In this document: positions 31,589 to 31,779 of the stretch, in pieces
How the letters are laid out: the number at the start of each line of letters is the position of its first letter
Position numbering within the stretch: the stretch's first letter is position 1
Source of the DNA: Eledone cirrhosa
Taxonomy: Eukaryota
Reading direction: 5' to 3'
Length of the DNA: 64,000 nt
Assembly (NCBI GenBank): GCA_964016885.1
Contig: OZ024742.1
Coordinates: forward strand, 126,542,001-126,606,000
Position numbers and translations under genes: made by a program
Notes under the pieces: model-generated
Seen by the model: only the letters and a program-made list of their open reading frames with translations
Told to the model about the DNA's origin: nothing
Databases searched by the model: none

Positions 31589-31779
31589 TTGGTAAACGGA
31601 ATAGAAAATGCTGAAAATATGTTCACAGTTGAAAAATGGTTTAATTAGGAATAAAAGAGTATTAGTGATTGTATGGGTTAGTATTCATAACCCATACAAT
31701 CACTAATACTCTTTTATTCCTAATTAAACCATTTTTCAACTGTGAACATATTTTCAGCATTTTCTATTCTGTTTACCAA
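31589..31779. mobile_element. Near-perfect hairpin insertion in (TA)n
   Basis: 92-bp arms 31589-31680 / 31688-31779 with one mismatch and a 7-nt loop gtattca. The arm is homologous to the tail at 27040-27138. Confidence 0.92.

Follow-up and report, generated by a model that had tools for sequence, protein, structure and literature searches.

The palindrome at positions 31589-31779 of this window (the whole 64,000-nt stretch of Eledone cirrhosa DNA that was analysed) raises the question of whether a short inverted repeat set in a TA array is a DNA transposon of the MITE type or the end of a retroelement. An earlier note had taken it for two 5'-truncated copies of one retroelement tail joined head-to-head. 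Judged from sequence comparisons, a Penelope-type element (PLE) with a hammerhead is the likely source of the hairpin, which would be its 3' end in doubled form. The tail of a hammerhead element, as put forward in the earlier proposal, is the best reading of the locus; two independent copies, on the other hand, are less likely than fold-back of a single cDNA, given spacers of 7, 8 and 19 nt in the three hammerhead-related palindromes of the window.

Intergenic eukaryotic DNA, rich in AT, makes up the window, which contains minisatellites and SINE-like repeats besides long TA arrays; the commonest dispersed repeat is presumably a cephalopod SINE. Two long minisatellites with units of about 45-46 nt lie at 8491-11134 and 17341-22378, and a further short, TA-bounded family is represented on opposite strands at 36288-36441 and 52029-52142 (84% over 108 nt). 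As TA arrays swamp repeat finding, 14,316 of the 64,000 bases (simple and short tandem repeats) were masked before self-BLAST. Pfam searches of 133 open frames, picked by length, low masking and complexity, detected no reverse transcriptase (RT), GIY-YIG or transposase domain among them; two weak matches fell below the cut-off. A broken minus-strand frame at 42001-42648 gave a weak zf-RVT match (E 0.0057, below the cut-off), and is likely the 3' part of an L1/Tx1-type element. The hairpin and its surroundings consist of the following parts, where tail positions are those of a linear relative described below.

30604-31588: left interrupted (TA)n array, about 980 nt, the likely target
31589-31680, minus strand: left arm, tail positions 8-99, ending in the TA array
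31681-31687, minus strand: loop of 7 nt (gtattca), tail positions 1-7, identical to 27040-27046
31688-31779, plus strand: right arm, an inverted second copy of tail positions 8-99
31780-31819, plus strand: one-sided extension of 40 nt between right arm and TA array, its first 6-7 nt TA
31820-32091: right interrupted (TA)n array

Masked self-BLAST of the window delimited a hairpin of 191 nt, with arms of 92 nt, 91 of them complementary, around a 7-nt loop. The 92-nt arms of the earlier description were thus recovered, but not the strict perfection that it had claimed. A CpG of the right arm has changed from C to T, which accounts for the only mismatch (31598 G vs 31770 T) and retains a G-T pair. 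The predicted DNA fold has an energy of -100.4 kcal/mol (z -26.6), equalled by none of 200 shuffles. Terminal inverted repeats, which here match at 91 of 92 positions, are a trait of MITEs. The hairpin itself contains no hammerhead motif and, on the reading proposed here, would code for nothing; an open frame of 32 codons in the arm is not conserved in the solo copy at 27040-27138. Neither BLAST nor nhmmer found a third copy of hairpin or tail in the window, nor a second palindromic one. The evidence on the family thus comes from this 64-kb window and consists of one palindrome and one solo copy; in place of the uniform copies with two terminal inverted repeats typical of MITEs, the sole other copy in the window has one arm only and leads on into a hammerhead (n=1).

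It had also been noted that both ends run into TA. This holds for the left arm, which abuts the long array, but the right arm is followed by the short TA stretch and then by unique sequence up to 31819 before the array begins. The extension is a candidate for a PLE "tail" or else an unrelated island: no homolog of it was found within the window, and it shows no homology to the sequence after 27158. At 40 nt, in the single copy of it in the window, it compares with the 30-40 bp published for PLEs. A target-site duplication is indistinguishable here, because the hairpin ends read TA or AT inside a TA array. Read outward from the hairpin, the two arrays start alike, with CT-separated runs of 21, 20 and 14 nt on the left and 22, 18 and 10 nt on the right, beyond the extension. 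Mirrored CT/AG interruptions recur at similar spacing in 31500-31588 and 31820-31880, as if the insertion had occurred at a local symmetry centre. CT and AG make up 10 of the 15 interruptions in the right array, however, and polarity switches several times, so the mirror match of the arrays is weak.

The homology on which the interpretation depends lies elsewhere in the window, where the following features were found.

26948-27137, plus strand: solo, non-palindromic relative of the hairpin, with hammerhead motif and tail, a 190-nt island between TA runs
26989-27024, plus strand: decayed type I hammerhead-like motif with 3-bp stem I from 26989, U3-A8 core at 26992, 5-bp stem II containing G10.1-C11.1, C in place of A13, palindromic helix III and predicted cut after 27021
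27040-27138, plus strand: linear tail homologous to loop and arm over 82 of 97 aligned bases
30136-30213, plus strand: second member of the same hammerhead family, core at 30170, intact GAAA, 82% over 51 nt

The claim that the arm is homologous to 27040-27138 was borne out: loop and left arm, read on the minus strand, align to it at 82 identical and 15 mismatched positions plus 4 gap columns, and the local score of 117 is far above the maximum of 43 in 500 dinucleotide shuffles. The loop does continue this homology, as proposed, matching 27040-27046 at 7 of 7 positions (chance by composition about 1e-4). All three tail copies (two arms and the solo copy, at two loci) end at one column, followed by ATATAT. 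As to the placement of the tail directly downstream of a hammerhead, 18 nt separate its first base (27040) from the nucleotide at which cleavage is predicted (27021); the motif in question is decayed and Rfam-negative. No TA run separates motif and tail inside 26948-27137, and a run of ...ACT units extends from the cut site into the tail (27022 through 27100). Such closeness would be rare by chance, since positions within 30 nt 3' of any of nine motif cut sites make up 0.27% of unmasked strand positions. Just upstream of 27040, where a halved palindrome would keep its partner arm, agreement with that arm is limited to 2 of 10 bases, or 7 of 20 over a longer stretch; the homology stops at the loop edge, and the solo copy keeps none of a partner arm. 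An origin of the solo copy by halving of a palindrome is disfavoured because these upstream bases are unlike the arm. The tail likely belongs to the hammerhead-bearing element, a link that rests on one copy; against it, the second family member (30170) lacks a recognisable tail.

Hammerheads were searched with a strict type I descriptor comprising a C3-G8 or U3-A8 core, stem II, palindromic helix III and stem I. With at most one core mismatch it gave two matches in 64 kb on both strands (26992 and 30170), and among 386 block shuffles just one gave two matches or more; when no mismatch was allowed, 30170 alone was left, a result equalled in 5 of 1156 shuffles. A relaxed descriptor without core mismatch, set post hoc, gave four matches (27846, 32940, and 32829 and 44476 on the minus strand) vs a mean of 0.017 in 409 shuffles. 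Both descriptors were drawn up with the motifs already in view, which makes all these shuffle figures optimistic. The motif at 26992 has one core defect, GCAA for GAAA, and by established conservation of the hammerhead core this copy is probably inactive. It retains all nine pairs together with 30170, including two double-sided changes; covariation is not significant on two sequences (128/500). Stem I has only 3 bp, and no extra base stands between positions 9 and 10.1. Folding z-scores of six motif windows were only +0.2 to -1.9. No Rfam family reached its gathering score anywhere in the window, and E-value searches of 26700-33100 and 44380-44540 detected no hammerhead. The best Rfam matches on the palindromes were microRNA models, below gathering scores, and were set aside as generic hairpin matches. 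Cores of the U3-A8 type, G10.1-C11.1 and a palindromic helix III have been published for PLE hammerheads, as described in PMC4209133; the position of a type I hammerhead near the 3' end, a PLE trait, is seen here in the solo relative only, as a predicted descriptor match.

The 30170 copy runs into a 12-nt TA stretch 14 nt after its cut site and then into a 113-nt island, so that the whole (30136-30338) is close in length to the 190-nt solo element. Resemblance of this island (30200-30340) to the tail was considered and rejected, being no better than in shuffles under three scoring schemes (690 and 923 of 1000 score as high). A 184-nt island between TA runs at 30420-30603, adjoining the TA array left of the hairpin, holds a hammerhead-like motif with one mismatch (30508), which is weak by itself since 57 of 322 shuffles give at least one match at the same setting. 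Another island of 136 nt (44393-44528, minus strand) carries a canonical-core motif (core 44476) and lies alone in a TA-type array of 3.4 kb. Although it fits the descriptor, the motif at 27846 is regarded as doubtful: 2244 nt separate it from a TA run, and a frame on the minus strand overlaps it. This frame (27800-28282, broken) resembles a non-LTR RT fragment; Pfam and protein searches of it returned nothing. At six of seven motif loci a cut site is followed by a TA run no more than 120 nt away on its 3' side, vs a background of 11.5%, and hairpin and solo loci are both TA-bounded, as expected of a (TA)n insertion preference, a trait that is not PLE-specific.

Six long self-inverted repeats were recovered from the window by masked self-BLAST, with 41/51 to 139/140 matched bases, and three of them, 31589-31779 included, are hammerhead-related. 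The palindrome at 32734-33035 matches at 139 of 140 bases, with a 3-nt gap and a 19-nt spacer; each arm holds a complete, outward-facing hammerhead motif, and an extension of 91 nt leads to a TA run on the left only (32643-33037 as a whole). On these features it appears to be the window's clearest case of a doubled hammerhead-element end. The second sibling, 14258-14371, has the 3' half of the motif in each arm (by eye), outward, around an 8-nt spacer, with its centre where stem II would be; it has a 67-nt extension, again on the left only, and its arms end about 67 nt apart in family coordinates (family 14191-14371). Counting the hairpin, the extensions are 40, 67 and 91 nt, each on one side only. 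The family of 14191 recurs at 1-92 of the window with a different junction, and as three 3' ends of 20-21 nt before TA (26568, 26625 and 26672, within 26568-26691), which may have come from a single local duplication. There the outer end is common to the copies while their 5' ends vary, as would agree with what retro origin predicts, but this is another family than that of the hairpin. The remaining palindromes differ in kind. The one at 6482-6586 is old (41/51 matched); in each of its arms the motifs follow one another in a degenerate, hammerhead-like order, which passes no descriptor. Those at 26751-26941 and 62130-62383 have no hammerhead match and spacers of 50 and 42 nt, so other kinds of palindromes do occur in this genome; the two may be true DNA elements, with ends which, we assume, resemble Sola or Kolobok-type non-autonomous elements. 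The hairpin arm has no homology to 26751-26941.

We are confident, short of certainty, that a retroelement was the source of the hairpin sequence, and we consider it probable that the hairpin itself formed during retrotransposition. Origin from a retroelement 3' end is the best reading because a single TA-bounded island holds both motif and tail, the solo copy lacks a partner arm, and the siblings have outward motifs and one-sided extensions. The hairpin has the layout of a PLE copy joined head-to-head to an inverted, 5'-truncated one: both 3' ends point outward, a polarity set by the orientation of the hammerhead, and the 5' starts are at tail positions 1 and 8. How the two arms came to be joined is a more balanced matter, and fold-back of one short PLE cDNA has about an even chance of being the answer. 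A PLE RT, primed at a nick in the TA array that a GIY-YIG endonuclease supplied in trans would make, would copy only the 3' end of the element and stall 18-25 nt before it reached the ribozyme cut site, as might happen if its template was the 3' cleavage product of the ribozyme. The short cDNA would then fold back and copy itself as second-strand synthesis, and would be joined to the other side of the target through TA; every enzymatic step in this sequence is inferred. The product would be a dead insertion formed once, not a member of a family that is mobile as a palindrome. Fold-back of one template is favoured because the spacers are short (7, 8 and 19 nt) and the arms are more alike (91/92) than loop and left arm are to the solo copy (82/97). 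Junction palindromes in head-to-head PLEs have been attributed to self-priming (PMC3846280), and the published account of PLEs includes inverted 5'-truncated copies, one-sided tails of 30-40 bp and a (TA)n preference that hides target-site duplications (PMC8557442). Against this mechanism, the solo copy shows no microhomology able to prime fold-back at the hairpin junction, and, if the left arm was made first, the extension beside the right arm is left unexplained by fold-back alone. The extensions of 67 and 91 nt, moreover, exceed the published 30-40 bp.

The one-sided extension is the point at which the model of the earlier note does better than fold-back. It assumes the same PLE origin, but with two cDNAs primed on both cut strands of the TA target, each 5'-truncated and the two joined head-to-head; the right cDNA would have started at a distal initiation site, which accounts for the 40 nt directly. 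According to PMC11167929, a PLE protein in vitro cuts and extends both strands of AT-rich DNA without homology; the purified protein is a predicted dimer, and two start sites bound the tail. If both copies stopped near the ribozyme-cut 5' end, a short loop would follow, yet the other two palindromes have their centres upstream of the cut site, and a stop defined by the ribozyme is therefore not the rule. The junction at 1-92 can be read as two truncation points, at family positions 21 and 74, but also as a loop-free fold-back with a later deletion. Independent truncation predicts uncorrelated lengths, whereas the spacers are 7, 8 and 19 nt, and we regard this model as possible but rather unlikely.

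The hairpin might also be what it appears to be on inspection, namely a true non-autonomous DNA transposon (MITE or foldback) with 92-bp terminal inverted repeats and TA targeting, in which case 27040-27138 would be a half copy, produced by deletion and joined to an unrelated hammerhead fragment. The near-identical inverted arms are flush with both ends and have TA on either side, and the lack of the tail in the second hammerhead copy (30170) also speaks for this reading. Palindromic MITEs with a very short spacer exist, for example MADE1. Mutator-like elements that target TA are known in plants, as reported in PMC4486113. This origin would, however, need a deletion that ended at the loop edge and a same-sense hammerhead 18 nt upstream with no TA between. 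In addition, the window contains no second palindromic copy, the 133 open frames include no transposase domain, and the sibling palindromes hold the ribozyme motif inside their arms. We regard a DNA transposon as unlikely.

Alternatively, a solo retro-inserted tail may have been doubled later at the DNA level, by a break in or near the TA array and fold-back repair synthesis with no RNA step. The outward run pattern is alike on both sides, as if the mirror had once entered the flank; this match is, as stated, weakened by the commonness of CT/AG and the switching polarity. On this view the 40 nt beside the arm must have been inserted afterwards, and several families share the layout; we consider this route distinctly improbable. 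A fold-back chimera of sequencing or assembly is the least credible explanation; near-perfect short-loop palindromes beside long TA arrays are a known type of artefact, but here the mirror ends at the natural 3' end of the family, the flanks differ, the sole mismatch is at a CpG, and the six palindromes of the window range from 41/51 to 139/140, as ageing insertions would.

If the preferred reading, a folded-back PLE cDNA, is right, it carries a warning for annotation, namely that very short PLE ends can pass as MITEs. It is plausible that short palindromes are mis-annotated in this way, and such mis-calls would shift a fraction of TA-rich invertebrate genomes from class I to class II. Our literature search, thin on subscription papers and on Repbase and Dfam, found no paper stating that PLE ends truncated past the ribozyme pass as MITEs. 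On the preferred reading, too, loop length and position over many copies would separate fold-back from two-ended priming. A wider conjecture, which we put forward with little confidence, is that hammerhead PLEs, by single fold-back events, gave rise to a large share of the short palindromes that are called MITEs or unclassified TIR elements in this genome, and that RNA features (stem II or the ribozyme-cut 5' end) determined where their centres lie. Were it true, thousands of such junctions would form a fossil record of PLE second-strand priming. An annotation of O. vulgaris assigns 6.83% of the genome to PLEs, divided among 190 families, and lists a total of 65 insertions for 65 recently active MITE families (PMC13282606). 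By analogy, such single-copy MITE "families" would fit one-off palindromes, which is only suggestive.

Head-to-head inverted PLE ends are already published, and the hairpin architecture is known (PMC8557442, PMC3846280); with this published architecture, the single locus would not surprise a specialist. As in the inverted pLTR and 5'-inverted truncated copies of EN+ PLEs described there (Neptune, Hydra, Naiad, Penelope/Poseidon), a head-to-head 3' end, 5' truncation and one-sided extension are combined, the (TA)n flanks hide any target-site duplication, and a hammerhead motif lies near the 3' end of the solo relative. Unlike those copies, the hairpin has no ORF and no direct pLTR pair, and truncation has gone past the hammerhead itself, leaving nothing but a near-perfect palindrome of 191 nt. 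Six distinct short motifs of the element and its hammerhead, with their reverse complements, were not found in the PMC8557442 supplement. The hairpin shares with TA-targeting or short palindromic MITEs (MuTAnT; PMC4486113) its shortness, lack of coding capacity, terminal inverted repeats and TA flanks, but differs in that the sole other copy in the window is single-armed and hammerhead-linked, and no uniform family or transposase partner was seen in the window. Short non-coding repeats with a type I hammerhead, among which solo monomers occur, are also found in non-LTR retrozymes, which have been proposed to be PLE derivatives (PMC7229834; bioRxiv 10.64898/2026.07.22.740005). Retrozymes of this kind are arranged in head-to-tail tandems; in the hairpin the copies are joined head-to-head without the motif, and the 190-nt unit was not seen repeated in tandem. 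The hammerheads described here lastly resemble the solo and opposite-strand minimal metazoan motifs of PMC4209133 in their type I fold, palindromic helix III and G10.1-C11.1. They differ from them in a shorter stem I (3 bp) and stem II (4-5 bp), in having no extra base after A9 and, at 26992, in the mutated A13. The same source reports the U3-A8 core variant for Schistosoma Cercyon, and dual motifs on opposite strands 100-700 bp apart, a range that includes the distance of about 110 nt between 32829 and 32940.
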